Of a stretch of 64,000 nucleotides of DNA, positions 36,345 to 55,799 are shown one piece after another. This DNA is from a candidate division Kazan bacterium RIFCSPHIGHO2_01_FULL_44_14 (GTDB lineage: Bacteria > Patescibacteriota > Kazan-3B-28): NCBI GenBank assembly GCA_001771185.1, contig METB01000001.1, forward strand, positions 439,200-503,199, written 5' to 3'. The position numbers and the translations under genes were made by a program. Position 1 is the first letter of the stretch, and each line of letters opens with the position of its first letter. The notes under the pieces were generated by a model. The model did no database searches and was not told the DNA's origin. It was given only the letters and a program-made list of their open reading frames with translations.

Positions 36345-36347
36345 AGT

Positions 36348-38171
36348 TTATGCAGTCACCTCTGACTTCCAGAAGTTGATTATGTTTGGGATTTCTTGCA
36401 ACCAGTCGGCTGGGTTCTCGAAGTTTGATGAACTGGTCACGATTTTTTCATACAACTCAAATAGTTTTTGATGAGTTAAGAAGACTCCCTTCTTCTTGAT
36501 TTCGGGTAGCACCTTCAAGAGGTCTGCAAACTGAGTGATCGACAAGGGGACTATCTTTTGGGGTTTTCCCTCATATTCGTATTTAACAGCCATCCAGAAG
36601 GTATTAACCGTATCTCTATGTAGTCTTGGGGCAAGAAAAATACAATAAGTTGTTTTGGTATGGTTTGCGTCTTCAAAGTCTCTGAGGTGTCTCATAACAG
36701 GTTGACCTTCGTTGTACCATTGATCGCGACCAGTTAGCATAGTGACCTCACAGATTGCATTGCTTGACTCGTAATAGCACTCTATATCTGGCACATTAGC
36801 AGGGGCAGTGAAGGTTGGTTCATTGTCATCTCCTACTGGGTAGTTTGGTTTTATTGATAGAGCATCGTTAAGGGCATTAAGACCCAAAGAAGCGTATTTT
36901 TCCAGGGCAATCGGTCTATCCTCTTGGCTGAATATATTTTCCAATGCTTCTATATATTCTTTAACTGATCCAGCGTCTTGAGCTACTTGATGTACCTCTT
37001 GTTCCTGCAGGTCTCTTCTATAGCTACGAAGTAGATTCGCATAATCCTTGAGAGCGTCCTTTGATAACTTCTGATAGTCAAGGCGATGTTGGGCAGATGA
37101 GTTAAGTTTTTTCTCGTATTCTGCTATTTCTTCAGTAAGTTTCTTTATGATTTCGATGAATTTGTCTTTAGTTTCCCAAGGGAGTTGGGGCTTGGAGATG
37201 TCGGAAAGGTATTCAAAATACTCATCCTTGGAGGCGAATTCTATAGCCTCAGCATTGTCATATGTTAATAAATTGTTGATTTCCACCGATCTTCTCGGCT
37301 CTAAGTCTACATAGAAACCGTTGCCCCTGATGTATATATATCTGGTTAATCTGAAGTATCGGATAGCATTGTCACCATAGTCCTTTAGGTTATTCAGTAG
37401 TTTTTCTATCTCGGAGTTGTCACCTGAGTCGAGAAAACGAATAGCAAATTCTCTCTTGTAGCTCTTTAGGATTTGTTTTTGATCTGCTTTAGTCTTTCCA
37501 TCCATCGCATCTCTAAGTTGTAGAATCTGATTTGAGTAGGATTCTATGTCCTTAGAATGCACAAGTGTAGGTGAAAAAAGGGCAAACTCTTCATTGCTTA
37601 ATCCTTTGGGATTTTTGCCACGCTTTATTTCTTTAAGGTTAACCTGATTGATTAAATGGAGTGTCCCAATAAAGGGCTTGATATTGTAAGTTCCATCTCC
37701 TGCATAATCGTTGCTTACTGGGTTGGGGATTTGCCATTTAATAAAGAATCGGAAGTAAACATCTCCAATATCCACCTTGCCCTTTAGAAAGGCATTGCCT
37801 AAGTCGGTGATTACAATTGCACCAGTAGTCTTTTTCGCAGTTGCCAACCCCATTTTGGTCAGGGGTGCTACGGATGTTCTCCCTCGTAGTCCCAGATCGT
37901 TTCGGAGTTCCTTAGATCGGCTGACCATATGATTGAAAATTTCCCGTGCTTTTGCAAAAGACATTGTGTCTTCAGCAGTCCCGTAATAACTGGCTAATTG
38001 GACTGATAGACCAGTTGGTTGGTATAGCCTATTTTGAATCAAGAGGGTCTGGAACTTAACTTGTCCAGCTTCATCGAAATTTTCCCCTTCCATTTCTTTT
38101 AGCACACGCAAAAACGGCAGTACTCTGTCGGGATTTCTTACGGTGGTTGATAAAGACCAAGGTTTTTTCAT
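36348..38171 (-). CDS. Putative Type IIS restriction endonuclease (AlwI/PleI-family-like)
   Basis: ~608 aa between two methyltransferases. The call rests on size, the two-MTase context typical of asymmetric-site Type IIS systems, and recalled similarity to the AlwI family. No definitive catalytic motif was identified. Confidence 0.45.
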   Translation of the reverse strand: MKKPWSLSTTVRNPDRVLPFLRVLKEMEGENFDEAGQVKFQTLLIQNRLYQPTGLSVQLASYYGTAEDTMSFAKAREIFNHMVSRSKELRNDLGLRGRTSVAPLTKMGLATAKKTTGAIVITDLGNAFLKGKVDIGDVYFRFFIKWQIPNPVSNDYAGDGTYNIKPFIGTLHLINQVNLKEIKRGKNPKGLSNEEFALFSPTLVHSKDIESYSNQILQLRDAMDGKTKADQKQILKSYKREFAIRFLDSGDNSEIEKLLNNLKDYGDNAIRYFRLTRYIYIRGNGFYVDLEPRRSVEINNLLTYDNAEAIEFASKDEYFEYLSDISKPQLPWETKDKFIEIIKKLTEEIAEYEKKLNSSAQHRLDYQKLSKDALKDYANLLRSYRRDLQEQEVHQVAQDAGSVKEYIEALENIFSQEDRPIALEKYASLGLNALNDALSIKPNYPVGDDNEPTFTAPANVPDIECYYESSNAICEVTMLTGRDQWYNEGQPVMRHLRDFEDANHTKTTYCIFLAPRLHRDTVNTFWMAVKYEYEGKPQKIVPLSITQFADLLKVLPEIKKKGVFLTHQKLFELYEKIVTSSSNFENPADWLQEIPNIINFWKSEVTA

Positions 38172-39271
38172 AGTTTTGCTGTCCTTACTTTGCAAAAGAA
38201 AACTCTTTCAGTATGACCGTTGATATCGCTCTTGCCCGTGGTAAAAGCACGATAAGTTTTTTCGAATGTCTTGACCTCGCCTTTTGCTTTTAAGATCCTT
38301 ACTATATCGTTGTCGCTAATTCTTGCATTGGATCTATCGTTCTTTGATTCTCCTGTGTTGTTGTAGGATAGCAATATATATTTACAGTTGGCATTTTGTA
38401 TTAAATCCTCCAATGCCTCAGTTGCTCCCCTTAAGCAGTATTCACTTTTGATATGGGATCGATCCATCTTTTTGGCAATGCCAGATACAGTTGGCTTACC
38501 CCAATCGACGAGATTCTCTAAAAGGTGGTAGGCATCTGAATACTGCCGTGAATTATAGGGTGGGTCGATATATAGCACATCGCATTTTATCTTCCTCACA
38601 AGAGCGTTGGCATCTTCTTTGTAAATCCTATTGTTGTGGTTAGATTCCCAGTCAATCTCGGGTAGCAACAGAGTGACAGGTTTCTGCTTGTCTATATCTG
38701 GACTCTTTCGATAAGCATCGTAGTGACCCACTGTATTTGCTATTTTATCTACCGCATACAAGAGAGAGCATAGCAGAATACTTTTTTCCTGTTCGGATTT
38801 TGATATTTCATCAATGGCACTACGGATCATCCCTATTTTTCTTGCGTTAGTAATTGAAAAGTAGCTATTTCCAAAATGCATTGAAAAGTAGTTATCCTCG
38901 TTCGTTTGCAAGGAATTAAGGTAGTCGATCTTATGTGTAATGGATTTTCTGTAATCGCCGTCCGTCATAAGGAAAGTCTTGAGACATACTATGCTACTGG
39001 ATAGTATGTCATTTGCGATTATCTCTGTCTGACCATCATTGAACTTTGCTCCCACCACTCCTGTACCAGCGAATATATCGCAGAATGTCTTGTATCCTTT
39101 GCATTCTTTTCCAACAATCTCCTCGATGAAAGATAGAAGCCTGTATTTACTACCCAAGTATCGTCTATTTTGGATACTAAATGTTTGGACAATAGATGGA
39201 CTGTCTACCAACACCCTAACACTGTTAGTTGATTGAGTTGGGCTAATTGTTATGGGTGAGATCCTGTTCAT
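38168..39271 (-). CDS. Dam-like (D12-class, alpha-group) N6-adenine DNA methyltransferase
   Basis: RYLGSKYRLL and DIFAGTG (motif I) precede LYIDPPYN (motif IV). Confidence 0.8.
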   Translation of the reverse strand: MNRISPITISPTQSTNSVRVLVDSPSIVQTFSIQNRRYLGSKYRLLSFIEEIVGKECKGYKTFCDIFAGTGVVGAKFNDGQTEIIANDILSSSIVCLKTFLMTDGDYRKSITHKIDYLNSLQTNEDNYFSMHFGNSYFSITNARKIGMIRSAIDEISKSEQEKSILLCSLLYAVDKIANTVGHYDAYRKSPDIDKQKPVTLLLPEIDWESNHNNRIYKEDANALVRKIKCDVLYIDPPYNSRQYSDAYHLLENLVDWGKPTVSGIAKKMDRSHIKSEYCLRGATEALEDLIQNANCKYILLSYNNTGESKNDRSNARISDNDIVRILKAKGEVKTFEKTYRAFTTGKSDINGHTERVFFCKVRTAKL

Positions 39272-39275
39272 AAAA

Positions 39276-39461
39276 TTACCTCGCACAGGCTTTGTCTAAA
39301 AACTTTTGGAATGTTTTGTGGTCAATTCTGAACTCTTTCCCCAGTTTATAAGCCTTCAATCTCCCAGCCTTTATGTAGCGGTAGATCGTCATTATATTTA
39401 CCTGCAGTTTGTCAGCTAACTCTTGGGCGGTGTAAAAATCCTTGTTTTTCATAGTCTCCAT
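39276..39461 (-). CDS. Excisionase-family/MerR-like HTH DNA-binding protein (candidate RDF or RM controller)
   Basis: YTAQELADKLQVNIMTIYRYIKAGRLKAYK matches the HTH_17/excisionase family. 61 aa. Confidence 0.55.
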   Translation of the reverse strand: METMKNKDFYTAQELADKLQVNIMTIYRYIKAGRLKAYKLGKEFRIDHKTFQKFLDKACAR

Positions 39462-42048: not shown

Positions 42049-42816
42049 ATGACGGTCTGTATTGGAGCTTTGGCTGAGAATGGGCAAAAGCTGGTACTTG
42101 TATCGGATAAGATGATTACTGCTAACATCCCGATTGCTTATCAGTTCCAGAAGCCAGATGTGCAAAAAATTTATCCGATTAACAATAATGCCCAAGTGCT
42201 GACTGCTGGGAATGCTTTATATGCTCACGAGATTGTCCGTATGGCAGTAAAACGGGTTGCGAAAGAGCGTCTCGAGGGTAAAGATGCTCATAGCGTTGAA
42301 GAGATTACGGAGATAATAAGATCTATCTACCAGGCGTTTAGATTGCAAAAGGTGGTTCAGCTTGTCTTGGAGCCAAGGGGGTTATCATTGGATGCCTACT
42401 ATAGTAATCAACAAAGGTTGCACCAAGGAATGGTGGGCGAAATAGAGCAAAACTTAGTGAACTACAATATAGGAGTAGAGTTAATAGTCGCTGGTATTAA
42501 CCCTGGGGACGGATGTCATCTGTACAGTATTACCCATCCTGGCGTATCCGCCTGTCACGACACGATAGGATATGCCTGTGTAGGTAGTGGAGCTCCCCAC
42601 GCTCTCTATTCTTTAATAGCCTCTGAATATACTAAAGACAAATTGGTTGGGCAGGTTGAAGCGTATGTAGATGATGCTAAGAAAAAGAGTGAGGTTGCCC
42701 CTGGAGTTGGGACGGAAACCGAAAAGATCATACTTCCACCTGCTACAATAGAAGCGGTTCCAGAAGTAATGCATACAGCGGTGCCAGTATTAGATAATCC
42801 ACAGCCACCAGTATGA
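42049..42816 (+). CDS. Proteasome-like N-terminal-nucleophile hydrolase (HslV/Anbu-like), putative
   Basis: Thr directly after the initiator Met (MTVCIGALAENG), a Lys about 30 residues in, and a GSG motif (ACVGSGAPHA). 255 aa. Confidence 0.4.
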   Translation: MTVCIGALAENGQKLVLVSDKMITANIPIAYQFQKPDVQKIYPINNNAQVLTAGNALYAHEIVRMAVKRVAKERLEGKDAHSVEEITEIIRSIYQAFRLQKVVQLVLEPRGLSLDAYYSNQQRLHQGMVGEIEQNLVNYNIGVELIVAGINPGDGCHLYSITHPGVSACHDTIGYACVGSGAPHALYSLIASEYTKDKLVGQVEAYVDDAKKKSEVAPGVGTETEKIILPPATIEAVPEVMHTAVPVLDNPQPPV

Positions 42817-43232: not shown

Positions 43233-43385
43233 ATGGGTGTTGTTCCACAATCTTGAAAGTTTGGATATCCAATTTTCCTAGGGATATAGGGATGTTAGTA
43301 CCGATAATCGCGGTTAAAAACGGGCAGATGCTCGAGTGCCGCGATTATCTACTCCTAGGAGCAAGAGATTGTGGAACAACCACCA
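43233..43385. repeat. Nested inverted-repeat structure (outer ~19-bp arms gtgttgttccacaatcttg / caagagattgtggaacaac; inner 11-bp arms gataatcgcgg / ccgcgattatc)
   Basis: The arms are directly visible. It lies just inside the candidate element boundary and upstream of gene 43447. Confidence 0.6.
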
Positions 43386-43446
43386 CGAGGTCTGCCCCTT
43401 TTTGATTTATATAATAATCGGCAGGTCATCGGGTAGGGAATCCACG

Positions 43447-44517
43447 ATGGCTATTATTGTTTCTAAATCAGGAAAGAACGCTCAAAAAGTTGAGCGATCC
43501 AGAATCGAACAAGAGGATTATCTCCAACAATATACACTGGATAATCCGGAGGTGATTCCACTTTACGATATCAAAGAAGATATCAGGTTACTAATTCTCG
43601 CTCGAGAGTTTTCCACTAATAGCGGTCCCATTGATGCCATTGGTATCGATAAGGATGGCGAGATTTATATTGTAGAAACTAAGCTCTATAAGAATCCGGA
43701 CAAACGAACAGTCGTTGCCCAAGCTCTCGACTATGGAGCGGCCCTTTGGCGACACTCCAATGATTTTGATTACTTTATCGATACTTTGAATCAGAGTGTC
43801 CAGAAGGTGTTCGGAATGACTCTCAACGACAAGATTGAAGCTTTCTTCGGTTTATCACAAGAGGAGATAGCTGGACTACTTGAGGGGGTCAAAAAGAACC
43901 TAGCCGATGGAGTGATGCACTTCGTCGTTCTGATGGATTCTCTAGATGATCGGCTGAAAGACTTAGTTCTATATGTTAATCAGAACAGTCAGTTTGATAT
44001 CTACATTGTTGAATTGGACTACTACAAGCACGAAGAGTATGAGATTATCATTCCCAAGATTTACGGGGCGGAGGTTAAAAAAGATGCCGCCATCCAGAAA
44101 AGTAGTGGGTCTAGGCAACAGTGGTCTGAGGAAGAGTATCTATCTAGCGCTAAAGCTACCATAGACGGCAAGGTCTATCCGGCATTCAGTAAATTATATG
44201 AAGCTTGTAAGACCTCAGCCGATGGGATGCGATTTGGCACTGGCACGGTCAGAGGTTCAGTCGGTCCATTCTATAACTCTATCTCTCGGCGAACTATTTT
44301 TACTCTTTATACCGACGGCAAGTTAGCTTTCAATTTTGGCTGGTTGAATGAGCCCACTTCAGCGATTGAGTTTAGAGATAGATACTTCAACGCGCTGAAG
44401 TCCTTGGGGCTGAAATTGGAAGAGAGCGATATTTTGGTCTATCCGCATTTTCCGATCAATCAGTGGTCGCCTTTGGTAGAGAAAATCATCCAAGTGGTTA
44501 AGGAGACTGCGGTATGA
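43447..44517 (+). CDS. PD-(D/E)xK (restriction-endonuclease-fold) nuclease-like protein with a C-terminal domain of unknown function
   Basis: IDAIGIDKDGEIYIVETKLYK gives a D...ExK arrangement of NucS/Shedu/Mrr type. 356 aa. Confidence 0.5.
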   Translation: MAIIVSKSGKNAQKVERSRIEQEDYLQQYTLDNPEVIPLYDIKEDIRLLILAREFSTNSGPIDAIGIDKDGEIYIVETKLYKNPDKRTVVAQALDYGAALWRHSNDFDYFIDTLNQSVQKVFGMTLNDKIEAFFGLSQEEIAGLLEGVKKNLADGVMHFVVLMDSLDDRLKDLVLYVNQNSQFDIYIVELDYYKHEEYEIIIPKIYGAEVKKDAAIQKSSGSRQQWSEEEYLSSAKATIDGKVYPAFSKLYEACKTSADGMRFGTGTVRGSVGPFYNSISRRTIFTLYTDGKLAFNFGWLNEPTSAIEFRDRYFNALKSLGLKLEESDILVYPHFPINQWSPLVEKIIQVVKETAV

Positions 44518-45230
44518 AGAAAATCAAATCCGTCGAGCAATATGGTCAGTTATATATGAAACGATTTCTCCAGGACCAAATTGCTCACAAGGATGCTATT
44601 TATGATGACTGGCGAGAGGCCTTGGAGTTCTTGTTTTCCAAGGTCTTTTATCGGGGTAGGCGAGATGAGTTGTCAGAGAGATTTATGTGGGCAACTCTTA
44701 AAACTCTAAAAGAAATTGAGTTAGATCCGGACTATAACAAGCAATTACTTGATAATCGCCTACAATCCAATGGGGTGAACAATCACAAGGATCGCAAGAT
44801 GGTCTGCGAAGTTCTGGATTTCGTCTTTAATCTTCCCACTCCTTACGGTCGCAATATCGTTAAATACACCATTGAGCGGATTAAAAATGGGAAGATTCTA
44901 GACATCTTTAATGAACTGAATACGATTTATGCCATCGGAGACAAGCTATCCTCGTTCTATATCCGAGATGTGGCGTTGGTATTTGATTTAGAGGATAAGC
45001 TACTAGCAGATGACTTCAAATATTGTCAGCCTATCGATACATGGGTGAAACAAGTAGCGGTTAAGCTGGACCTTATTGCTCCCCAAGAAGGGGATGTGGC
45101 AACAATCAAGTCAGCCATTATAGATGCGTGTCGAGGGGCAAATGTATCACCCCTACTTTTTAACGCAGGGGCATGGATGGTCGGAGCTAAATCCTTCGAT
45201 TTGTTGATAGAGCGGTTTTCTACACAATAA
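44514..45230 (+). CDS. Hypothetical protein, possible helix-hairpin-helix DNA-binding module (LNTIYAIGDKLSSFYIRDVAL)
   Basis: ATGA overlap with the upstream nuclease-like gene. 238 aa. Confidence 0.4.
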   Translation: MKKIKSVEQYGQLYMKRFLQDQIAHKDAIYDDWREALEFLFSKVFYRGRRDELSERFMWATLKTLKEIELDPDYNKQLLDNRLQSNGVNNHKDRKMVCEVLDFVFNLPTPYGRNIVKYTIERIKNGKILDIFNELNTIYAIGDKLSSFYIRDVALVFDLEDKLLADDFKYCQPIDTWVKQVAVKLDLIAPQEGDVATIKSAIIDACRGANVSPLLFNAGAWMVGAKSFDLLIERFSTQ

Positions 45231-45258: not shown

Positions 45259-46638
45259 CTAGCGGGCTGAAGTGGGTTCATCGATAAGCTTGGTTAGGGT
45301 AGTTTTCTTATTGTCTTGTAGTGTCAGTTTGCCTTGGTTCAATATTACTTGGCTTTGGATGTTTGCTAGTATCTCTCGCTTTTGTTCATTACTACCTTCC
45401 CGGAGAATGTACTTGGCATACATTTTCAGGTCCACTCTTGGCATTTTGGAGGTGGCGGAATCTATCCCCAGCACTCCCTGCGTGAATTTATTGTAGCGGT
45501 CTATCTCTTCCTGCAACCTATCCTTCATCCCGATTCGATCTAGAGTCAGTTTATCGATAATCTCCACAAATTGTTCAATGAGGTCTGCCTCTCTGACATA
45601 AGGTTGTTTGCACCCGATTCTCTTGCTATCTGTGCAGTGATAGTAGACATGGCGATTCATCTCACCATTCTTTAATCGCTTGAATTTTTCTTCAGCACTG
45701 ACTCCGGCCCCGCACTGACCGCAGGTCATCATCCTTGTAAAGGCGAAGCACTTTTCACCATGACGGCCATGTGGGGGTTTAGAAATTCTAACTTGCACCT
45801 CATCAAATAACTCTTTGTTAATTAGTGGTTCGTGTTTGCCTTGGTAGCTTCCTTCGCCATAGGTATATTCGCCATAGTAGAAGCTATTCTTGAGAGTCAG
45901 AAAGATTGAACTTAGTGCCATCTTCTTGCCGCTTCGAGTCGTGAAGTTAGTTTCGCTATTAAGCCAATCTAAGATGTTCCTGCCGGAGTAGCCATGTTTG
46001 GCCACCTTATTGAAGATCTCTTTAATGGTGGGAGCTCTTTCTTTGTCGACCAAGATCGTGTTGTCGGCATAGTTGTTGAGATAGCCGAGTGGGGCGACTC
46101 CTGGTCGCCAGCCCATCTCACATTTGGTTCGCATCCCTCGTTTAACATTCACGCCCTTGTTATCGTTTTCCAATTTGGCTTGGGAACAGAGAATCATTAA
46201 GAGGAACTTCTCGTTAGGGGAGTTCCGGAATATCTGACCATGGGTTCTGATTTCGTGCAGAAGTCCTTGGTCCATAAGGTCGACCAAAGAGCCAAGGTCT
46301 CCGGCATTACGGCTCAATCGGTCTGGAGCCCATGTCATAATTCCATTGAAATCGCCTTCTCGGATTCTCATCAGAAGCTCAGTAAAGGCGGGTCTTTGGC
46401 CGGAGTCCTTAGCCGAGTGGCTTTCCTTGATAGTCTCTACTATCTCTATCCCATCCCTCTCAGCCATCGCCAACATCTCTTTGATTTGGCTGTCTATGGA
46501 GAGGGCTTGTCGTTCGTCCTGCTCTGAGGACTTACGGGCATAGAGACAGTACTTGGCTCCCTGTGGTTGCTCCATGGCTTCCGAAGACCCCTCGGGAGCT
46601 CCTGGAATCGTCTCGTTTTTCACCATATTTGCCTCCAT
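45259..46638 (-). CDS. Large serine recombinase (second copy, distinct sequence)
   Basis: The resolvase catalytic region CLYARKSSEQDE...DSQ, recombinase domain, and zinc ribbon (CGQCGAGVS...YYHCTD). The N-terminal start is uncertain (MEAN... or MEQP...). Confidence 0.8.
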   Translation of the reverse strand: MEANMVKNETIPGAPEGSSEAMEQPQGAKYCLYARKSSEQDERQALSIDSQIKEMLAMAERDGIEIVETIKESHSAKDSGQRPAFTELLMRIREGDFNGIMTWAPDRLSRNAGDLGSLVDLMDQGLLHEIRTHGQIFRNSPNEKFLLMILCSQAKLENDNKGVNVKRGMRTKCEMGWRPGVAPLGYLNNYADNTILVDKERAPTIKEIFNKVAKHGYSGRNILDWLNSETNFTTRSGKKMALSSIFLTLKNSFYYGEYTYGEGSYQGKHEPLINKELFDEVQVRISKPPHGRHGEKCFAFTRMMTCGQCGAGVSAEEKFKRLKNGEMNRHVYYHCTDSKRIGCKQPYVREADLIEQFVEIIDKLTLDRIGMKDRLQEEIDRYNKFTQGVLGIDSATSKMPRVDLKMYAKYILREGSNEQKREILANIQSQVILNQGKLTLQDNKKTTLTKLIDEPTSAR

Positions 46639-46742: not shown

Positions 46743-48980
46743 ATGGAGCTAGCAGACAACGAAAAGCGGGATATTATCAAGTACTTGGAGGCAGGGAAAC
46801 CCCTGCCAGACAAGTACCGCTTTTTGCTATTCGGGGATAAAAATGAGGTAGAGTTGGTCTGGAATGGTAAAACCGACGAGGTTACTAATGTGGCTCTGCC
46901 TTTTCAGGTTATAGAACAGGTGGACGAGGCTAGGAGTGAAAAAGAGGTAAAAATCCAGACGGGTCTATTTGATGAGGGTGGCCGTCAGATTGGAGGTTGG
47001 GTCAATAAGCTGATTTGGGGCGACAATAAGCTCATTCTTTCCAGCTTGAAGAATGGTCCCATCAGGGAAGAGATAGCGAGACAAGGTGGGATAAAACTGA
47101 TTTACATAGATCCGCCATTTGATGTCGGTGCTGATTTTTCTATGGATATTGAGATAGGTGATGAGCAATTTACCAAACAGCCAGGCGTATTAGAAGAACT
47201 GGCGTACAGAGATACATGGGGTAAGGGTGCTGATAGTTTTATCTCTATGATTTATGAGCGTCTAAAGTTGATGAGAGACTTATTGGCCGATGATGGCAGT
47301 ATATATGTGCATTGTGATGACAGATTGAGTGGGTATTTACGACTAGTAATGGATGAAGTTTTTGGAAAAAATAATTTTAGAAATCATATTATCTGGAAAC
47401 GCACCTCTTCACATAATGATTCTAAAAAGATTGGCAAGGTGTCAGATTCAATTTTTTACTACTCCAAGAGTGAAAATGCTATATGGAATCCACAATTTAG
47501 GCCTTACGATCAAACTTATCTTGATAACTTCTATCGGCATATCGAAAGCGACGGTCGTAAGTATCGTCTGCACCAAATAGAACGTAATCCAGCACTAGGT
47601 CTTCGTGAAAATCTAAAGTATGAATACAACAACTACACACCTCGGTATGGCTGGATGGTGGAGAGAGGGAAGCTTGAGGAACTTGATAAAAAGGGTATGC
47701 TGGTTTGGTCAAAAAACGGTAAACCCCAAAGGAAAATCTATATAGGCGAGGACACTGAAGGACAGCCGATTCATGATATTTGGGATGATATATCAGCAGT
47801 TGGTAGCCAGAGTAAAGAGAAGACTGATTATCCAACACAAAAACCAGAGTCATTGCTTGCAAGGGTTATTAGAACCTCTACTAATGAAGGTGACATCGTT
47901 GCCGACTTTTTTGTGGGTTCTGGTACTACTTTGTCCGTTGCCGAAAAATTGGGACGTAAATGGATTGGTAGTGATTTGGGAAAATTCTCCATTCATACTG
48001 CTCGCAAAAGAATGATTGGTGTTCAGCGGGAACTTAAAAAAGAGAATAAGGGTTATCGAGCGTTTGAGATTCTTAATCTTGGTAAATATGAGAGGCAATA
48101 TTATGTGGGAGCCAATCCCGATTTAAGAGATGAAGAAAAACAAAGACAGCTTGACCAAAAAGAGCAAGATTTCGAGAAGCTTATATTGGGCGCCTACAAG
48201 GCAGAGCCGGTGGACGGCTTCAAAACATTCAGAGGGAAGAAGGCCAGCCGATTGGTATCCATTGGGGCCATTAACTTACCGGTTACTCGTAGGTTTGTGG
48301 AAGAAGTCGTAGAAGAATGTCTCGAGAAGAAAATCACCAAGGTAGATATTTTAGCCTTTGAGTTTGAGATGGGTCTATTTCCCAAAATGCAGGAAGAGGC
48401 CAAGGACAAAGGTATTGATATGGCTCTTAAATATATTCCTCGAGATGTGTTTGACAAAAGAGCTATCGACAAAAATCAAGTTGTCTTCCATGATGTTTCC
48501 TTTATCGAGGTCAGGCCTATTATCAAGGGTAAAAGTGTGGCAATCGAGCTAACTGATTTCTCGGTTTTCTATAATCAGGATTCTGTCGCCCAGGTTGAAT
48601 CTCTACTCAAGAATGGTAACAATAAGATTGTGGTTGAAAATGGTCAGATTATTAAAGTGCTAAAAGACAAGGATGGCATAGTCACTCAGGAGGTACTAAC
48701 TAAGAAGTGGTCTGATTGGATCGACTACTGGTCTGTAGATTTCAATTTCGAGAGCAAGCAAGAGATTATCCGTATCCAGAAAGATGGTAAAACTGAGGAG
48801 GTTTGGACGGGAGATTATATATTTGAAAACGAATGGCAATCTTTCAGGACCAAAAAGGACCGTAAGCTGGATTTTGTAAGTGTTGCGACTGAAATGACAA
48901 AAGGTCGACATAAGGTTGCTATAAAAGTGGTCGATATCTTTGGCAATGACACTATGAAAGTTATGGAGGTAAATATCTAA
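46743..48980 (+). CDS. Type III restriction-modification methyltransferase (Mod-like, beta-class N6_N4 MTase) with a long C-terminal extension
   Basis: Motif IV IYIDPPFD comes ~265 aa before motif I FFVGSGTT, with a TRD-like region between. 745 aa. Confidence 0.8.
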   Translation: MELADNEKRDIIKYLEAGKPLPDKYRFLLFGDKNEVELVWNGKTDEVTNVALPFQVIEQVDEARSEKEVKIQTGLFDEGGRQIGGWVNKLIWGDNKLILSSLKNGPIREEIARQGGIKLIYIDPPFDVGADFSMDIEIGDEQFTKQPGVLEELAYRDTWGKGADSFISMIYERLKLMRDLLADDGSIYVHCDDRLSGYLRLVMDEVFGKNNFRNHIIWKRTSSHNDSKKIGKVSDSIFYYSKSENAIWNPQFRPYDQTYLDNFYRHIESDGRKYRLHQIERNPALGLRENLKYEYNNYTPRYGWMVERGKLEELDKKGMLVWSKNGKPQRKIYIGEDTEGQPIHDIWDDISAVGSQSKEKTDYPTQKPESLLARVIRTSTNEGDIVADFFVGSGTTLSVAEKLGRKWIGSDLGKFSIHTARKRMIGVQRELKKENKGYRAFEILNLGKYERQYYVGANPDLRDEEKQRQLDQKEQDFEKLILGAYKAEPVDGFKTFRGKKASRLVSIGAINLPVTRRFVEEVVEECLEKKITKVDILAFEFEMGLFPKMQEEAKDKGIDMALKYIPRDVFDKRAIDKNQVVFHDVSFIEVRPIIKGKSVAIELTDFSVFYNQDSVAQVESLLKNGNNKIVVENGQIIKVLKDKDGIVTQEVLTKKWSDWIDYWSVDFNFESKQEIIRIQKDGKTEEVWTGDYIFENEWQSFRTKKDRKLDFVSVATEMTKGRHKVAIKVVDIFGNDTMKVMEVNI

Positions 48981-49594
48981 TGACTGACTATGCTATCAAT
49001 TTGGAAGAGACTCTATCTATCAAAGATAGTTGGGGATATGAAACTGAAGTAGATGCAGTTATTTATCGCAACCAATTTGATAAATATTATCAGGCATACT
49101 CAAAGTCTGGTTTGCAGGAAGACCTAATGTTTAGTTTTATATTCCTTCAGATTTATATAGAGTGTTTTTTGCATGGCTGTATGAGGAAAATTGTTGAAAT
49201 GGAATTCAAGCCGCCTCGTATAAATGTGTACAAAGATTGGACTGGAGGAGAAAAGCGTTCGGTTCAAGACAAATTAGATGCCTTTGTGGGACTCTTTTTT
49301 AGTCTCATAACTGACAAGATCAACGATGATAAAGATGAAATTAAGAGACTCTTCGGTAGCATTAGCTATATCCGCAACCTACTAGTTCATGGCCACAAAG
49401 TTGCAATGTGGTCGAATTCTGATGGCTACTCTGGTATCAGTGAGGCTAAAGCATTCTTAACCTCAGATCAGTTGGGCAACACAGTCAAGGAGGCAAATAA
49501 ACTTGGGGCATTGTGGAATCAGTTATTGGACACAATTTTGCCACAACTCAAAGCATTACAAAGAGTGAGTGATTTTAAGTATAAAGAAATATAA
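48980..49594 (+). CDS. HEPN-like protein (Rx4H motif SYIRNLLVHGH) inserted between mod and res
   Basis: TAATG overlap with the mod stop, and 6 nt before the res start. It is all-alpha by composition. The HEPN assignment rests only on the Rx4-6H motif. Confidence 0.4.
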   Translation: MTDYAINLEETLSIKDSWGYETEVDAVIYRNQFDKYYQAYSKSGLQEDLMFSFIFLQIYIECFLHGCMRKIVEMEFKPPRINVYKDWTGGEKRSVQDKLDAFVGLFFSLITDKINDDKDEIKRLFGSISYIRNLLVHGHKVAMWSNSDGYSGISEAKAFLTSDQLGNTVKEANKLGALWNQLLDTILPQLKALQRVSDFKYKEI

Positions 49595-49600
49595 TTCGCC

Positions 49601-52291
49601 ATGGCATTACATCCTAATTTCCCAAAATCTCCCCATGCTATCTTGAACCCAGATTTACGCTGGTTTCCGGCAGATGAAGCATTGAGAGAGAAAGATTACA
49701 GCAAATTGTTGCCACCACTTGTGGCAAAGCTTCGTAAGGAAGTGGCAATTTGGCGTGACAAGAACTACGAGGGGGCCACGGATACCAGTAAGGGCTTATT
49801 GCAGTGGTGGTTCAAGACGGATCACCCCATGGATGATAGCAATGGCAGAACATACTTATTTGAATATTATTTCGCCCAGCGAGAAGCGGTAGAGACTGTT
49901 ATTTATCTCTATGAAATCGCTGGCGTTAAACAACCTTTAGATCTTCTGAAGTACGATAGCTCGGGAGCCATCTCTACTGGGATGTTCGATGAATCTTGGT
50001 TGAGATTTGTCATTAAGATGGCTACAGGTAGTGGCAAGACGAAGGTCTTAAGTTTGATATTGGCTTGGAGCTATTTCCATAAGATGTATGAAGAATACTC
50101 TCATTTGGCGAGAAACTTCCTAGTGATTACCCCGAACATTATTGTATTGGATCGTATCCGGTCTGATTTTGATGGACTCAAGATTTTCTTTCAAGATCCA
50201 GTTGTGCCAGATAACGGGTTTGAGGGTAAGAACTGGCGAGATGATTTTCAGCTAACACTTCATATTCAGGACGAGATTGGGGTAGTCAATAAAACGGGAA
50301 ACATTTTTCTTACCAATATCCATCGGGTCTATGAAGGTAATGTGACTGAACCGACTTTTAAAGATGAAGACACTACTAACTATTTTCTAGGTAAAAAGCC
50401 TACTGGGGCGACCAATGAATCAAAAGTGGATCTTGGTCAGATTGTGCGTGATGTAGATGAGCTGGTAATCCTGAATGATGAAGCCCATCATATTCACGAC
50501 CCGAGAATGGCCTGGTTTAAGTCCATCGAAGACATCCATAATCGGCTGAAGATGAAGGGGGTGTCGTTATCGCTTCAGCTAGATGTGACAGCCACTCCCA
50601 AACACGATAATGGTTCTATTTTTGTACAAACAGTTAGTGATTATCCGCTGGTCGAAGCCATCCATCAGGATGTGGTGAAGCATCCGGTTCTGCCGGATTC
50701 GGCTAGTCGAGCCAAGCTTCAGGAGCAAAAAAGCTCTATCTTCACCGAAAAGTATAAAGACTATATCCATCTGGGCTTTCTGGAATGGAAAAAGGTATAT
50801 GAGCAACACAAGAAACTCGGCAAGAAAGCTGTTCTGTTTGTAATGACTGATGACACTAAAAATTGCGATGAAGTGGCTGAGTATTTACATAAAACCTATC
50901 CCGAGTTTAGTAATCAAGATTCAGTACTGGTCATTCACACCAAGAATAATGGTGAAATCTCCGAGAGCGTAACTGGCAAAAATGAAGAAGAGCTTAAAGA
51001 GCTTCGTCTAGCGGCCAATAGTATCGATTCATTTGATAGCCCACACAAGGCAATTATTTCTGTGCTGATGTTGAAAGAGGGTTGGGATGTAAAGAATGTA
51101 ACGACTATTGTTGGACTTCGAGCCTATTCTGCCAAAAGCAATATCTTGCCCGAGCAAACACTAGGCAGAGGTCTGCGACGAATGTATAGGGCGGAGAATA
51201 TTACTGAGATGGTGAGCGTGGTGGGTACCGATGCGTTTATGGACTTTGTTGAGTCTATTAAAAGCGAGGGTGTGGAATTGGAACGTCGCAAGATGGGTGA
51301 GGGTACTGAACCTAATGCTCCGTTAGTCATTGAGGTTGATAACGAAAATACCAAGAAGGATATCGCTAAACTGGACATTGAGATTCCTGTTCTGACTCCT
51401 CGGATCTATCGGGAATACAAAAACCTGTCGGATTTGAATTTGGCAGGTCTTCAGTACAAGAAAATCGAGCTTAAACAATTCTCTAAAGAGGAACAGCGAG
51501 AGATTGTTTTTAGGGACATAGCTACCGGAAATATTACCCATACCACCAAGTTTGATACGGAGTTTACGCCGAATTATCAGAGTGTTATTGGCTACTTTAC
51601 GCAAGTGATTATGAAGGAACTTCGGCTGGTTAGCGGTTATGATGTTTTGTATGGCAAGGTAAAAGAATTTATTCAAAGTAGTCTCTTTACCAAGTCGGTA
51701 GATTTGGAAGACCTTAACATACTGCGTAACTTGTCAGAACTAGAAGTGACCAAGACTATAGTTGAGACTTTCAAAAAAGCTATCAACGCTCTGACAGTTC
51801 TGGATAAAGGGGAGGCCGAAATCAGGGACTACATTAAGGTCAGTAAGAGTCGGCCGTTTGTCACCAGAGAGCAGGGTTATCTTTTGCCCAAGAAAAGTGT
51901 CTTTAACAAAATTGTCGGAGACAGTCATCTTGAGCTAGAGTTTGCCAGTTTTCTAGAAGAAGCCGAGGATGTAGTTTCTTATATCAAGAATTATTTTTCT
52001 GTCTACTTCCGAATTGACTATCAAAACAGTAGTGGTGATATCTCTAACTTTTATCCCGACTTCATCGTTAAGTTGTCTGAGAAAGAGGTCTATATTGTCG
52101 AGACTAAAGGTAGGGAAGACCTGGACGACATTGAGAAAATAAACCGACTTCGACAGTGGTGTCAGGATATCAACGAAGTACAAAAGAAGGCCACCTACAA
52201 AATGCTATATGTGAAGCAAGAGGATTGGGATAAGTTAGACCATAAACCAGGGTCTTTTGCCGAGGCTGTCCGACTTTTTGAAGATAAATAA
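49601..52291 (+). CDS. Type III restriction enzyme Res subunit (SF2 helicase plus C-terminal PD-(D/E)xK nuclease)
   Basis: Walker A ATGSGKTKV, DEAH box LNDEAHHI, C-terminal PDFIV...YIVETKG. Confidence 0.85.
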   Translation: MALHPNFPKSPHAILNPDLRWFPADEALREKDYSKLLPPLVAKLRKEVAIWRDKNYEGATDTSKGLLQWWFKTDHPMDDSNGRTYLFEYYFAQREAVETVIYLYEIAGVKQPLDLLKYDSSGAISTGMFDESWLRFVIKMATGSGKTKVLSLILAWSYFHKMYEEYSHLARNFLVITPNIIVLDRIRSDFDGLKIFFQDPVVPDNGFEGKNWRDDFQLTLHIQDEIGVVNKTGNIFLTNIHRVYEGNVTEPTFKDEDTTNYFLGKKPTGATNESKVDLGQIVRDVDELVILNDEAHHIHDPRMAWFKSIEDIHNRLKMKGVSLSLQLDVTATPKHDNGSIFVQTVSDYPLVEAIHQDVVKHPVLPDSASRAKLQEQKSSIFTEKYKDYIHLGFLEWKKVYEQHKKLGKKAVLFVMTDDTKNCDEVAEYLHKTYPEFSNQDSVLVIHTKNNGEISESVTGKNEEELKELRLAANSIDSFDSPHKAIISVLMLKEGWDVKNVTTIVGLRAYSAKSNILPEQTLGRGLRRMYRAENITEMVSVVGTDAFMDFVESIKSEGVELERRKMGEGTEPNAPLVIEVDNENTKKDIAKLDIEIPVLTPRIYREYKNLSDLNLAGLQYKKIELKQFSKEEQREIVFRDIATGNITHTTKFDTEFTPNYQSVIGYFTQVIMKELRLVSGYDVLYGKVKEFIQSSLFTKSVDLEDLNILRNLSELEVTKTIVETFKKAINALTVLDKGEAEIRDYIKVSKSRPFVTREQGYLLPKKSVFNKIVGDSHLELEFASFLEEAEDVVSYIKNYFSVYFRIDYQNSSGDISNFYPDFIVKLSEKEVYIVETKGREDLDDIEKINRLRQWCQDINEVQKKATYKMLYVKQEDWDKLDHKPGSFAEAVRLFEDK

Positions 52292-52298
52292 ATGGAAT

Positions 52299-54014
52299 AT
52301 GTCATTTCTACCAAAAATCTTTAATGCATTATCTCGGCATACCAACAAGGGGGTTGCGGTTGCTACGGTGGTTGGGGATACGAATAGTATCGAAGTCACT
52401 CCAGAATACAATAAGGTATTAGATTTAATTGAGGGTGGAGCTCCTATCACACTAGTTAGTGGTGCTGGTGGAACTGGCAAATCGACACTTATCAAATTTC
52501 TGGAAAAGACCCTGCGTCGTAAGATAGTGAAATTGGCACCAACGGGGGTGGCCGCGATTAACGTTGGCGGACAAACACTTCATTCATTTTTTCAGCTTCC
52601 GCACCAAATTCTCACCAAAGACCATGTGAAGCGGATATATCAGAAGAAACTGTATCAGCAGATTGGGTTGCTGGTTATTGACGAGGTTTCTATGGTGCGA
52701 CCAGATGTTTTGGATGCCATAGATCACTTTTTGCGGATCAATGGTCCTGACGGAGCAAGACCATTCGGAGGGGTTCAGCTATTGCTGATAGGGGATCATT
52801 TTCAGCTTCCTCCTGTGACCCCGACATCAGAGGATGCCGTTCTTAGGCAAATGGGATACAACTTTGAGCGGCACTACTGGTTTCATGCTAAGTGTGTTCA
52901 AGATCTTCCGATTGAATATGTTGAGTTAACTCATATCTATCGGCAAACCGATGCCCATTTTATTAACCTCTTAAGTAAGATTCGGGTTGGTAATGATTTG
53001 GCCAATGTGATTAAGGAAATCAATGAGAAATGTTTTGATACCGAATATCAATCGGATTTATGTACTACAGTTACGGCGACCAATAGGGTGGCTGATTTTA
53101 TTAACCAAGCTAAGTTTGACGCCCTGCCGGGGCAGGTTTATAAATTTGAGGGTTATATCGATGGCAAGTTTGCCGCCGAGAAGGAAAAACTACCCTCTCC
53201 ATCGGAGCTGTTTTTGAAAAAAGGAACTCGGGTGATGTTCACTAAGAACGATTCAAGGAAGAGGTGGGTTAACGGAAGTACAGGTATTGTCGAGGAGGTC
53301 GACGAGAAAGAAATCAGAGTAAAAATGCTAAACTCTAGTTTGGTTTATTCGGTAGAGAAAGCCAAGTGGCAAAATCTGAAATATGTTTACAACCAAAAGA
53401 CGGAGAAGTTAGATACGGAGATTGTTGGGGAATATGTACAATATCCGCTGAAATGGGGATGGGCTATTACTATTCATAAAGCTCAGGGCAAAACTCTAGA
53501 CGAGATTATTATCGACCTAGGTAATGGAGGGGCGTTTGAGACAGGTCAGGTCTATGTGGCTTTGAGCCGTTGCCGGACATTGGAGAATATTCATCTTAGA
53601 CGACCTCTGAATCTTAGTGATGTAAAGTGGTGTCCGATTATCAAGGAGTTTGACGATTATCTGTCTGGTCGTATGGAGAAACTAGTGTCTATTGGTGAAG
53701 GTGAGCTTCCAGAGGACACTGACGACTTAGCGAAGGCGCTGGAGAAGAGGAGAGCACTAAGTGGCGAACTACATCAGGTAATAGCCAAGATTGGTAAAGC
53801 CATATCTAGCTCAGGTATCGATATAGCGGGTCTCCCGGGGAATGAGAGTAGGGATAAATCCTACGAGCCGTGGGATGAGACAGAAGACGATATGTTGCGT
53901 CTTCGTTTTCAAGAAGGAATACCAATAAAAGATATTGCCAAGCTTCATGCGCGGACTATTGGAGCCATACGCTCCAGATTAGACAAATTGGGGGTTACGG
54001 TGGAAGTCGGGTAA
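52299..54014 (+). CDS. Pif1/RecD-family SF1 helicase with a C-terminal sigma-70-region-4-like HTH
   Basis: Walker A SGAGGTGKST, Walker B LLVIDEVSM, and a C-terminal segment (YVALSRCRTLENIHL) typical of Pif1-like helicases. C-terminal HTH LRLRFQEGIPIKDIAKLHARTIGAIRSRL. Confidence 0.7.
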   Translation: MSFLPKIFNALSRHTNKGVAVATVVGDTNSIEVTPEYNKVLDLIEGGAPITLVSGAGGTGKSTLIKFLEKTLRRKIVKLAPTGVAAINVGGQTLHSFFQLPHQILTKDHVKRIYQKKLYQQIGLLVIDEVSMVRPDVLDAIDHFLRINGPDGARPFGGVQLLLIGDHFQLPPVTPTSEDAVLRQMGYNFERHYWFHAKCVQDLPIEYVELTHIYRQTDAHFINLLSKIRVGNDLANVIKEINEKCFDTEYQSDLCTTVTATNRVADFINQAKFDALPGQVYKFEGYIDGKFAAEKEKLPSPSELFLKKGTRVMFTKNDSRKRWVNGSTGIVEEVDEKEIRVKMLNSSLVYSVEKAKWQNLKYVYNQKTEKLDTEIVGEYVQYPLKWGWAITIHKAQGKTLDEIIIDLGNGGAFETGQVYVALSRCRTLENIHLRRPLNLSDVKWCPIIKEFDDYLSGRMEKLVSIGEGELPEDTDDLAKALEKRRALSGELHQVIAKIGKAISSSGIDIAGLPGNESRDKSYEPWDETEDDMLRLRFQEGIPIKDIAKLHARTIGAIRSRLDKLGVTVEVG

Positions 54015-54034: not shown

Positions 54035-55519
54035 ATGCAGCTCTCAAAATCTGATTACATGTTGTTTCTACGCCATCCGGCTTGGTTATGGCTCAAGAAA
54101 CACGCCAAAGATAAATTACCCCCTGTGGATGAAGATACTCAGGCGATTTTTGATGCTGGTTTCCTGTTCGAGACATACGCTGAACAGCTTTTCCCTGATG
54201 CAACAAAGTTAGAATACGATCGAGGGGACTATCAGGCATATGGAAAGCTAACTGCCGAGACAAAACAAGCGATAGCATCCGGAGCTACCACCATTATGCA
54301 AGGTCGTTTTGAGGCTGGTGATATCACGTGCATTTGTGATGTGCTGGTCCGAGTCAAGGATAATGAGTTTGACCTTTATGAAATTAAATCTAGTACTCAC
54401 GCTAAGCCCGAGCATGAGCCTGATTTAGCTTTTCAGATGGTAGTGCTAGAAGATTGCGGTTATACGGTTAACAAAATCTATGTCGTTCATGTAAATAATG
54501 AATACGTTAGAAACGGAGAGGTCACAGCCAAGGATCTAGCCAAGATGACTGAAGTTATTGACCAAGTTAAAGCATTGCGAGAAACTACCAGGGAGAATAT
54601 CAAACAAGCTCTGGAAGTTATGAATTCCAAAGAATGTCCAGATATCTCACCATCCTTGGCGAAGCTGGGAGCTTTTAATGATTGGCTGGGAATCTTCAAG
54701 ACTCTGGCAGAGGTAGAAGAATATAGTATTTATGATCTCTGTTCTCCTGGTGCAAGTAAGATTGGCAAACTGGAAGCATTGGGCATCAAGCAGATAAAAG
54801 ATATCCCAGAGGATTTTGCTCTAAGTGTAAAACAGCAAAGCCAAGTTCGGGCAACTAAGACTAACGAAGTATGTGTGGACAAGCCAAAGATTAAGCAGTT
54901 TTTGTCTGAGCTAAAATATCCTCTATATTTTCTTGATTACGAGACCCTATCTAGCGTAGTGCCATATTTCGATGGGCTAGGGCCTTATAAGCAATTGCCA
55001 TTCCAATATTCTCTGCATGTTATTGAAAAGCCGGGTGGTGAAGTAAATCATTTTGAATATTTGCATCAGGACAACAGCAACCCAGCACAACCAATCTCGG
55101 AATCGCTGAAGTCGCAAATCGGTGATAGTGGCACAGTCTTGGTTTGGTTTGAGGGTTTTGAAAAAACCTGCAACGAGCTATTGGGTGCCCTGCTCCCAGA
55201 GTTCACAACTTTCTTCAAAGACCTGAATGACCGCATCGTTGACCTAATGATTCCTTTTTCGACTTGCTCCTATGTCCACAAAGATTTTTTCGGGAGTACC
55301 TCGATTAAACAGGTATTACCGGTCCTGATTCCTGAACTTTCATATAAAGATTTAGATATCCATGCTGGTGGAGCAGCTCAACGGCTATGGATGGAGGCGG
55401 TATTGGATGGAAAAAGAGCTGATGAAAAAGATAAGATTCTTAAGGACTTAAAACAATACTGCGAGTTGGATACCTACGCGATGGTGAAGATATTCCAGTT
55501 CATTTCTGACATCAAATAG
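54035..55519 (+). CDS. DUF2779-like protein with an N-terminal Cas4/RecB-like PD-(D/E)xK nuclease motif
   Basis: CDVLVRVKDNEFDLYEIKSST gives D...ExK. The C-terminal YFLDYETL...PFQYSLH region is recalled as DUF2779-like. Confidence 0.5.
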   Translation: MQLSKSDYMLFLRHPAWLWLKKHAKDKLPPVDEDTQAIFDAGFLFETYAEQLFPDATKLEYDRGDYQAYGKLTAETKQAIASGATTIMQGRFEAGDITCICDVLVRVKDNEFDLYEIKSSTHAKPEHEPDLAFQMVVLEDCGYTVNKIYVVHVNNEYVRNGEVTAKDLAKMTEVIDQVKALRETTRENIKQALEVMNSKECPDISPSLAKLGAFNDWLGIFKTLAEVEEYSIYDLCSPGASKIGKLEALGIKQIKDIPEDFALSVKQQSQVRATKTNEVCVDKPKIKQFLSELKYPLYFLDYETLSSVVPYFDGLGPYKQLPFQYSLHVIEKPGGEVNHFEYLHQDNSNPAQPISESLKSQIGDSGTVLVWFEGFEKTCNELLGALLPEFTTFFKDLNDRIVDLMIPFSTCSYVHKDFFGSTSIKQVLPVLIPELSYKDLDIHAGGAAQRLWMEAVLDGKRADEKDKILKDLKQYCELDTYAMVKIFQFISDIK

Positions 55520-55647: not shown

Positions 55648-55722
55648 GCCGAGGTAGCTCATTGGTAGAGCGAGAGCTTGAAAAGCTCTGCGTAGGAGGT
55701 TCAATTCCTTCCCTCGGCACCA
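55648..55722 (+). tRNA. tRNA-Phe (anticodon GAA)
   Basis: GCCGAGG acceptor, D-arm GCTCATTGGTAGAGC, anticodon loop TTGAAAA, T-loop GGAGGTTCAATTCCTTC, CCA encoded. Confidence 0.8.
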
Positions 55723-55724
55723 AT

Positions 55725-55799
55725 GCCCCCGTAGGCTAACGGATAGACCAAGTCGCTTCTATCGACAGAGTGAGGGTTCGATTCCTTCCGGGGGCACCA
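55725..55799 (+). tRNA. tRNA-Arg (anticodon UCU), weak D-stem
   Basis: GCCCCCG/CGGGGGC acceptor, anticodon loop CTTCTAT, T-loop GAGGGTTCGATTCCTTC, CCA encoded. It lies 2 nt after tRNA-Phe. Confidence 0.65.

Follow-up and report, generated by a model that had tools for sequence, protein, structure and literature searches.

A HEPN-like gene in an interchangeable slot that separates mod from res in a Type III restriction-modification operon from a candidate division Kazan bacterium

Introduction

Why would a Type III restriction-modification (R-M) operon carry a third gene between those of its two subunits? The question is raised by a 64,000-nucleotide stretch from candidate division Kazan bacterium RIFCSPHIGHO2_01_FULL_44_14 (contig METB01000001.1, positions 439,200 to 503,199), which we call the window. 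In this stretch, a gene for a protein of 204 amino acids (aa), here named X, lies between the methyltransferase gene mod and the restriction gene res. A first reading of the sequence (the original prediction) recognized an Rx4H motif of HEPN RNases in X and proposed that, if the motif is real, the R-M system has a built-in abortive arm of the RNase type. An antitoxin-like regulator was named as the alternative.

R-M is the most common prokaryotic defence, and phages routinely neutralise it. A back-up for restriction is known from a few cases, which are PrrC, PARIS, retrons, Ronin, and EcoR22I. Patescibacteria, to which the Kazan bacterium belongs, have very small genomes and are thought to rely heavily on R-M.

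Operon structure and the Type III subunits

The three genes are all on the plus strand. The mod gene (46743..48980) encodes a 745-aa beta-class N6/N4 DNA methyltransferase of the Type III R-M kind, X (48980..49594) a single-domain HEPN-like protein of an unannotated family, and res (49601..52291) an 896-aa subunit with a superfamily 2 (SF2) helicase and a C-terminal PD-(D/E)xK nuclease. As read from the sequence, the mod/X junction (48965..48982, +) consists of a GGAGG (48965-48969), a spacing of 10 nucleotides (nt), and a TAATG overlap of the mod stop and the X start. At the X/res junction (49595..49603, +), the TAA stop of X is separated from the ATG of res by the 6-nt spacer TTCGCC without a Shine-Dalgarno (SD)-like sequence. 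The open reading frames (ORFs) and both junctions are as originally described. Scans of the operon for promoters and terminators gave fewer promoter-like sites and about as many terminator-like sites as shuffled sequence, with no plus-strand site of either kind at the mod/X or X/res junction. An internal promoter or terminator that cuts X off from mod or res is unlikely by this comparison. The genes mod, X, and res form a single tightly coupled operon with co-linear, translationally coupled expression.

The motifs and family matches of Mod and Res agree with the proposed Type III assignment. In Mod, the DPPF motif (aa 123) precedes FVGSG (aa 390), which is the beta-class order. The protein matches PF01555 (1e-46) and the PADLOC model MTase_III (9e-108), and its top relatives of solved structure are the Type III Mods 6k0w and 4zcf (EcoP15I). 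The motifs of Res are GSGKT (aa 143), DEAH (aa 293), and PDF...VETK (aa 819-836), the last seen by eye, and the protein matches PF04851 ResIII (5e-16) and PADLOC REase_III (1e-20). Its match to the endonuclease family PF19778 (7e-5, 23.0 bits) is 0.4 bit below the cutoff of 23.4, so that the nuclease part is marginal by score. The nearest NCBIfam family of Res, BPTD_3080, was matched at 9e-81 yet under its cutoff, and a phmmer search of Res against solved structures returned no match. Together, the motif and family evidence for both subunits indicates an R-M operon of the Type III kind that contains a third gene. The window system is like the canonical EcoP15I and EcoP1I in its mod-then-res order, its beta-class Mod, and its SF2 plus PD-(D/E)xK Res. 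It differs from them in the coupled third gene of 615 nt, which separates mod from res, and in a Mod that is about 100 aa longer at its C-terminus.

The C-terminal region of Mod had been described as an unusually long extension of about 300 aa. Its length was estimated well, since about 315 aa follow the catalytic domain (48033..48977, +). The region is less unusual than claimed. The PADLOC model of Type III Mods reaches to about aa 618, leaving only the last 125 aa or so as lineage-specific. This tail is possibly Ig-like, with a weak Big_13 match at aa 696-741 (E 0.079). It is 95-100% conserved in L004 and L007 (L numbers denote the loci compared) and is also present in relatives that lack X. 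The conservation with or without X indicates that the tail is not X-specific.

The slot between mod and res

We surveyed the mod-res slot in relatives of Res on IMG/VR contigs, and Res identities are given relative to the window Res. The slot is empty in L042 (65%), where mod and res are joined directly by the same TAATG overlap as mod and X in the window, and in L044 (62%), where a 1-nt spacer separates the two genes. The direct coupling in these two operons indicates that mod-res adjacency is ancestral in this Type III lineage. In L045 (96%), the slot holds an unrelated 222-aa ORF with an N-terminal hydrophobic (transmembrane) helix (L045:4349-5017). Nucleotide homology between L045 and the window extends to 48970 and is back exactly at 49601, so X has been cleanly replaced from the mod stop to the res ATG. 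Other contents are a 170-aa protein with two hydrophobic (transmembrane) segments and a CxxC...CxxC zinc ribbon in L043 (64%; L043:4473-4985) and a 273-aa candidate KilA-N-like protein, judged by eye from its sequence, in L041 (69%; L041:3799-4620). L011 (75%) has both X and a RhuM-family gene (PF13310, 5e-108; L011:894-1922) in the order Mod-X-RhuM-Res. The Mod-X-Res arrangement of the window was also found in L004/L009, L005, L006, L007, and L012, and L019 shows Mod-X at a contig end. These comparisons strongly support X as a true insertion in an interchangeable cargo slot, as the original prediction had supposed of the gene between mod and res.

One of the Mod-X-Res loci, L012, has mod as two overlapping ORFs of 417 and 356 aa (L012:7727-9993). 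This split is either a frameshift, with possible inactivation or phase variation, or an assembly error.

The variable target-recognition region of Mod (47378..47814, +; about aa 200-400) is a second exchanged cassette. Nucleotide homology to L045 and L007 breaks in this region. Compared with the Mod of L007, amino acid identity is 17-47% in aa 200-360 and 93-100% elsewhere, and in L045 the region is non-homologous. The operons that differ in this region are otherwise about 85% identical in nucleotide sequence. Such a swap would pair different recognition sequences with nearly identical Res subunits.

X itself evolves far faster than its neighbours. Its nonsynonymous divergence (dN) is 0.19-0.28, whereas that of Res is 0.011-0.018 and that of Mod, in the comparison with L004, is 0.026. 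The ratio of nonsynonymous to synonymous divergence (dN/dS) of X is about 0.1, which reflects purifying selection and indicates a functional gene. This ratio and the roughly 80 homologous clusters described below rule out a pseudogene or spurious ORF.

Conservation of X and its predicted fold

None of the libraries Pfam, PADLOC, NCBIfam, and PHROGs gave a match for X. A word-indexed search for homologues returned 44, the named ones from metagenome-assembled genomes (MAGs) of Patescibacteria. Searching exhaustively with a profile gave 78 representative clusters, of which 44 had E<=1e-10. All members come from uncultivated genomes, most of them of Patescibacteria. Its neighbour-joining tree is star-like, and the Mod-X-Res loci are neither grouped nor clearly separated in it. 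One X locus with the usual Patescibacteria-type neighbours (L017, JALOBP010000002.1) is in a MAG labelled Methanoregula sp., which probably reflects an error in binning and not an occurrence in archaea.

Residues without variation in the close-family alignment (A1) are, among others, L56, Q57, Y59, E61, H65, R69, W87, E91, K98, R132, N133, H137, G138, and W179. A wider alignment (A2) comprises 63 sequences including distant members and has a mean column identity of 24%. Only R132 and H137 are invariant in A2, and L56, E61, K98, N133, and G138 are conserved at 90% or more. Both invariant residues belong to the Rx4H motif R132-N-L-L-V-H137-G-H139 (IRNLLVHGH; 49373..49396, +). A lone Rx4H in 204 aa is unremarkable by itself. 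As its Arg and His are the sole invariant columns of A2, the motif is not there by chance and defines the X family; the motif seen in the first reading is real. Substitutions in X cluster in the helical insert and the first part of helix 3.

The AlphaFold2 (AF2) model of X (pLDDT 89, pTM 0.82) is all-alpha with one hairpin (143-153). Its helices are 25-43, 46-75, the short 81-88 and 95-106, 112-136, and 162-189. HEPN domains are bundles of four helices, and often an insert separates the second helix from the third. The Rx4-6H motif ends helix 3, a polar residue (Asn, Asp, or His) follows the Arg, and an acidic residue is in helix 2 (PMC3710099). The model of X is consistent with each of these features. 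E61 (codon 49160..49162, +), which is conserved in at least 90% of A2, would be at the HEPN helix-2 position in helix 46-75, the segment 81-106 would be the insert, and R132-N133...H137 would close helix 112-136. The motif has the spacing of the HEPN signature with the polar N133 after the invariant Arg.

Sequence profiles point in the same direction. When all 63 A2 members were scanned individually against Pfam, with matches below threshold, every family matched by at least two of them was a HEPN family: RiboL-PSP (9 members), Apea (8), HepT (3), Swt1 (3), and DUF3644 (2), the last of which has been equated with a HEPN clade (PMC3710099). MAE_28990 and LA2681 were single weak matches. The recurrent PADLOC matches of X relatives were to the CARF_HEPN, Csx1/Csm6, and RT-HEPN models. 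Several small solo HEPN clades linked to R-M, namely ApeA/BMEI1217, Abi2/AbiD/F, AbiJ solos, AbiU2, and EC042_2821/DUF3644, together with RiboL-PSP and MAE_28990 in association with ParB/methylase genes, likewise have R[NDH]xxxH and occur in or beside R-M systems (PMC3710099). Clades of this kind supply the only recurrent weak Pfam matches of the X family, all of them sub-threshold. The ParB-methyltransferase neighbours described for RiboL-PSP and MAE_28990 (PMC3710099) are found at several X loci too.

Several results weigh against the HEPN assignment. X itself matches no HEPN model in Pfam or PADLOC, and none of its relatives reached a curated HEPN threshold; the best, P0084, scored 4.5e-5 and 23.9 bits against the 28.4 required for PF18735 (RiboL-PSP-HEPN). 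The motif itself may largely account for the weak matches. Against the sequences of solved structures, profiles A1, A2, and A3 gave only chance matches. Foldseek searches of the AF2 model against PDB and the viral BFVD returned generic helical bundles with nothing at E<=0.001, and no HEPN structure was among the 50 best matches listed. A third homologue search, seeded from the most distant subgroup and aimed at bridging the X family to Pfam-annotated HEPN proteins, recovered known members only, none with precomputed Pfam domains. The HEPN assignment of the original prediction is supported in part: relatives weakly match HEPN models but X itself does not, and the helix order of the model agrees with HEPN but no HEPN structure was among the fold matches listed. 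What supports the assignment is the invariance of the motif, the Asn after the Arg, the helix-2 Glu, the order of the helices, and the recurrence of weak HEPN matches in Pfam and, independently, PADLOC, whereas a significant profile or fold match is missing. From the sequences and the model, we consider it probable that X has a HEPN fold and RNase chemistry.

The missing significant match to any HEPN sequence or fold could also mean that X is a helical protein other than a nuclease. Its R...H would then serve binding or regulation, for example of Res expression or assembly or in an antitoxin-like manner, or its fold would not be HEPN at all. Non-catalytic HEPN domains such as MtlR do exist (PMC3710099), and because res is without an SD sequence of its own, translation of X could set the dosage of Res. 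Non-catalytic HEPN domains, however, typically lose the Rx4-6H motif (PMC3710099), whereas Arg and His are the sole invariant residues here. The slot can hold membrane proteins in place of X, many X loci have neither R-M genes nor a toxin partner, and the direct coupling of mod and res in relatives without X argues that no regulator is needed. We regard a non-nuclease role as the least probable of the explanations considered. An antitoxin-like regulator, as named in the first reading, is also unsupported by the neighbourhood. Only Mod and Res adjoin X, so there is no separate minimal nucleotidyltransferase (MNT) or toxin partner gene beside it in the window. The candidate that X is half of a HEPN-MNT (HepT/MntA) pair was rejected since no nucleotidyltransferase domain was found in the scanned genes flanking X.

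X homologues with and without R-M genes

X is recurrently placed just upstream of the restriction subunits of different R-M types. In addition to the Type III loci, a Type I operon (L026:3396-11549) has the order HsdM - 262 aa - HsdS - X - trypsin-like peptidase - HsdR, each gene overlapping the next by 4 nt. The peptidase belongs to PF13365 and also resembles the protease part of the PADLOC RT-Protease models. With X and the peptidase, this R-M operon contains two candidate effectors. The neighbours of X in L025 and L021 are a serine recombinase and, in convergent orientation, an MmeI-like Type IIG enzyme. In L016, X closes a same-strand cluster of two D12 methylases, an AlwI-like restriction endonuclease (REase), and a DpnI-like REase. 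An X-homologous domain (RNLLIHGY) is the apparent C-terminus of a 1161-aa ORF directly after HsdR-YgjP in L027 (L027:2677-6162). This ORF has a hydrophobic N-terminus and no Met in about 70 residues upstream of the X-like domain, which is either a real fusion or a gene with a missed non-ATG start. The occurrence in Type I and Type II contexts and alone led us to reject the candidate that X is a Type III-specific accessory or specificity subunit.

R-M genes touch or adjoin X in about half of some 25 distinct loci by plain count. In the other half or so of the loci with usable context, no R-M gene touches X, which weighs against a coupling of X to restriction. In L001, L008, L017, and L031, the order is HTH_17 - X - 363 aa beside a ParB-methyltransferase/TerS/TerL block, L015 has DUF2779 - X - 361 aa, and X is apparently solitary in L002, L010, L014, L022, and L029. 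So many R-M-free loci indicate that X is not strictly dependent on an R-M partner.

A conserved protein of about 360 aa, 30-45% identical between loci and without a Pfam or PADLOC match, adjoins X in at least five loci (L001:8618-9709, L015:10613-11698, L023:5894-6976, and L025:12144-13169 among them). It adjoins DUF2779 in other loci and could act together with X or belong to the backbone of the element. A 363-aa ORF of the window (24116-25207) was considered as this X-adjacent partner and rejected (BLASTP E 0.13).

An autonomous, self-triggered HEPN effector is the main rival explanation, and the many loci without R-M genes favour it. X would be an abortive-infection RNase with a trigger of its own, and the R-M operon would provide only co-transfer and constitutive expression, the R-M proteins neither caging X nor sensing for it. 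The trigger could be a small-molecule or DNA-breakdown signal as in ApeA or a damage signal as in RloC. ApeA is a HEPN tRNA anticodon nuclease that works alone and is switched on by 5'-phosphorylated deoxydinucleotides (10.64898/2026.01.26.701840), and its family occurs in R-M operons as well (PMC3710099). The weak Apea matches of X family members, the solitary copies, and the apparent C-terminal position of the X domain in the 1161-aa ORF of L027, which is the usual position of an effector domain, all favour this explanation. X, however, has no sensor domain in its 204 aa, while ApeA carries about 300 additional aa as an N-terminal domain, with a defined pocket for its ligand (10.64898/2026.01.26.701840), and RloC has an ATP-binding cassette (ABC) ATPase. 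A constitutive, unregulated RNase without an antitoxin would be toxic. The coupled position directly upstream of the restriction subunit, in Type III as well as Type I operons, is also more specific than clustering in defence islands. An autonomous effector is possible, but we consider it rather unlikely.

A proposed back-up role in restriction

Our preferred explanation is that X is a latent HEPN RNase coupled to restriction, a back-up suicide effector carried on a serine-recombinase island. By analogy with known systems, we give this explanation an even chance. In the proposed mechanism, X would share a transcript with Mod and Res, and the three would be translated in step. Two X copies would pair to form a composite R...H active site like those of other HEPN RNases; that X dimerises is inferred from these RNases. 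The active site would be silent as long as the R-M machinery works normally. If a phage disables or overwhelms restriction, X would cut cellular or phage RNA (tRNA, rRNA, or mRNA), translation would stop, and the infection would be aborted. The chances that the R-M complex controls X seem balanced to us. The built-in abortive arm of the original prediction is plausible from the gene position and from precedent.

The closest precedent is PrrC, which is embedded in the R-M system EcoprrI and released upon inhibition of restriction by T4 Stp (PMC12707154). In this Type Ic system (hsdM-hsdS-prrC-hsdR), as in the window, a HEPN-type gene is inside the R-M operon just upstream of the restriction subunit, and X between hsdS and hsdR in L026 is in the very position of prrC. 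The proposed logic is also alike, in that the R-M complex would keep the RNase silent until restriction is inhibited. The two systems differ in several respects. PrrC has an N-terminal ABC ATPase, whereas X is a bare 204-aa domain without a match to any P-loop family. The window system is Type III and not Type I, X often occurs without R-M, and X is known here from sequence alone. Relative to the PrrC/RloC anticodon nucleases, X thus shares the R-M-embedded gene (in the window and L026) but not the ABC-ATPase fusion. At least 16 HEPN clades are linked to R-M and have been predicted to act with R-M in this way (PMC3710099).

Ronin and EcoR22I are experimental precedents for R-M systems that cage or trigger a death effector upon anti-restriction. 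In Ronin, HsdMS cages the small membrane toxin RonA (10.1101/2023.04.06.535777). EcoR22I, a Type III system, triggers cell death when it senses Ocr. The small membrane proteins in sister X slots are reminiscent of the 61-aa RonA. RonA is a membrane toxin and not an RNase. EcoR22I, which is associated with a DrmD-like helicase, lacks a separate effector in its mod-res interval; neither system has a sequence relationship to X.

Further points in addition to the R-M-free loci weigh against the proposed back-up role. X is without a regulatory domain such as the ABC ATPase of PrrC, and the KilA-N-like and RhuM slot cargo are DNA-binding proteins and not obvious toxins. The membrane proteins in sister slots fit an effector role, and the RhuM and KilA-N-like cargo fit it less. 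A broader version of the proposal would make the mod-res junction a dedicated, translationally coupled effector socket for exchangeable modules that kill the cell or signal, filled by a HEPN RNase, a membrane protein, a RhuM or KilA-N type, or nothing. Mod2Res would be the guarded sensor of phage anti-restriction and the socket gene its executioner. We regard this version as unlikely.

Mobile-element setting

A large serine recombinase gene (45259..46638, -) with Resolvase, Recombinase, and Zn_ribbon_recom domains is divergent from mod and syntenic in L004, L007, and L045. It marks the Mod-X-Res cassette as part of a mobile island. Downstream of res are genes for a PIF1/Dda-like superfamily 1 helicase with a C-terminal helix-turn-helix (52257..54014, +), whose listed TTG start overlaps res by 35 nt, and a DUF2779/Cas4-like nuclease identified by library matches (54035..55519, +). 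Both are absent 3' of res in L012 and L043, and the pair or single members flank X homologues in L015, L025, and L033. This distribution suggests a shared element backbone or another defence pair outside the core R-M. The genes of tRNA-Phe and tRNA-Arg follow (55648-55799) and set the island apart from a minus-strand block that extends to 59170. This block contains TerL (phrog_38, 2e-73), a small TerS-like HTH_Tnp_1_2 protein, and a ParB_N-methyltransferase fusion. Blocks of the same kind adjoin X in L001, L008, L017, L023, and L031 and may represent a phage-like or satellite-like element of Patescibacteria.

Upstream of the recombinase, the gene at 43336-44517 encodes a NucS/PD-(D/E)xK-like protein with a match to the PADLOC candidate PDC-S11 (4e-20). 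It overlaps a 238-aa ORF (the pair spans 43336-45230), and L004 and L007 have the two genes in synteny with the R-M cassette. The PDC-S11-like gene is present in L025, too. A second mobile R-M block (34003-39286, -) combines the gene of a large serine recombinase with those of an N6_N4 methylase, an REase of the AlwI family (PF09491, 2e-88), and a D12 adenine methylase. The X homologue of L016 comes after an AlwI/DpnI cluster that resembles this block. A 255-aa ORF (42049-42816) that partially matches a proteasome subunit (PF00227, 3e-9) is located between the two R-M islands.

This setting raises the explanation that X is simply cargo of mobile elements that serves the island or phage-like element and not host restriction, for example in superinfection exclusion, addiction, or takeover of host RNA, with the mod-res junction a merely permissive landing site. 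X relatives travel with serine recombinases, TerL/TerS-like and ParB-methylase genes, PIF1 helicases, and DUF2779 in several arrangements, the nearest relative is on a contig that IMG/VR classes as viral, and sister elements have unrelated slot contents. However, tblastn searches with X, P0084, and P0098 found no homologue in 50,697 phage and 72,556 plasmid records. X is also within the Type I operon of L026, which is without obvious element backbone genes, and the preference for the site just upstream of the restriction subunit is left unexplained. Carriage by an element is, moreover, compatible with a defence role, so that the two are not mutually exclusive. As an explanation of X by itself, element cargo seems improbable to us.

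Conclusions

The defence principle considered here is already known, and the X family and its setting are new. Its prediction dates from 2013, and experiments demonstrated it for PrrC; for a specialist, the finding would therefore be confirmatory rather than surprising. What is added is an unannotated, largely Patescibacteria family of HEPN-like proteins. Since annotation libraries do not recognise the family, defence-finding pipelines miss it. The comparison also indicates that, in one Type III lineage, the mod-res junction is a hot spot for the exchange of different small effectors with the translational coupling preserved. If the coupling to restriction is real, the operon would serve as a minimal model of guarded restriction in three genes, its RNase being a bare 204-aa protein that has no regulatory domain. 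If the socket version were true as well, Type III R-M would be a modular two-layer immunity, and both Type I (hsdS-X-hsdR) and Type II systems would be able to take up its HEPN module.

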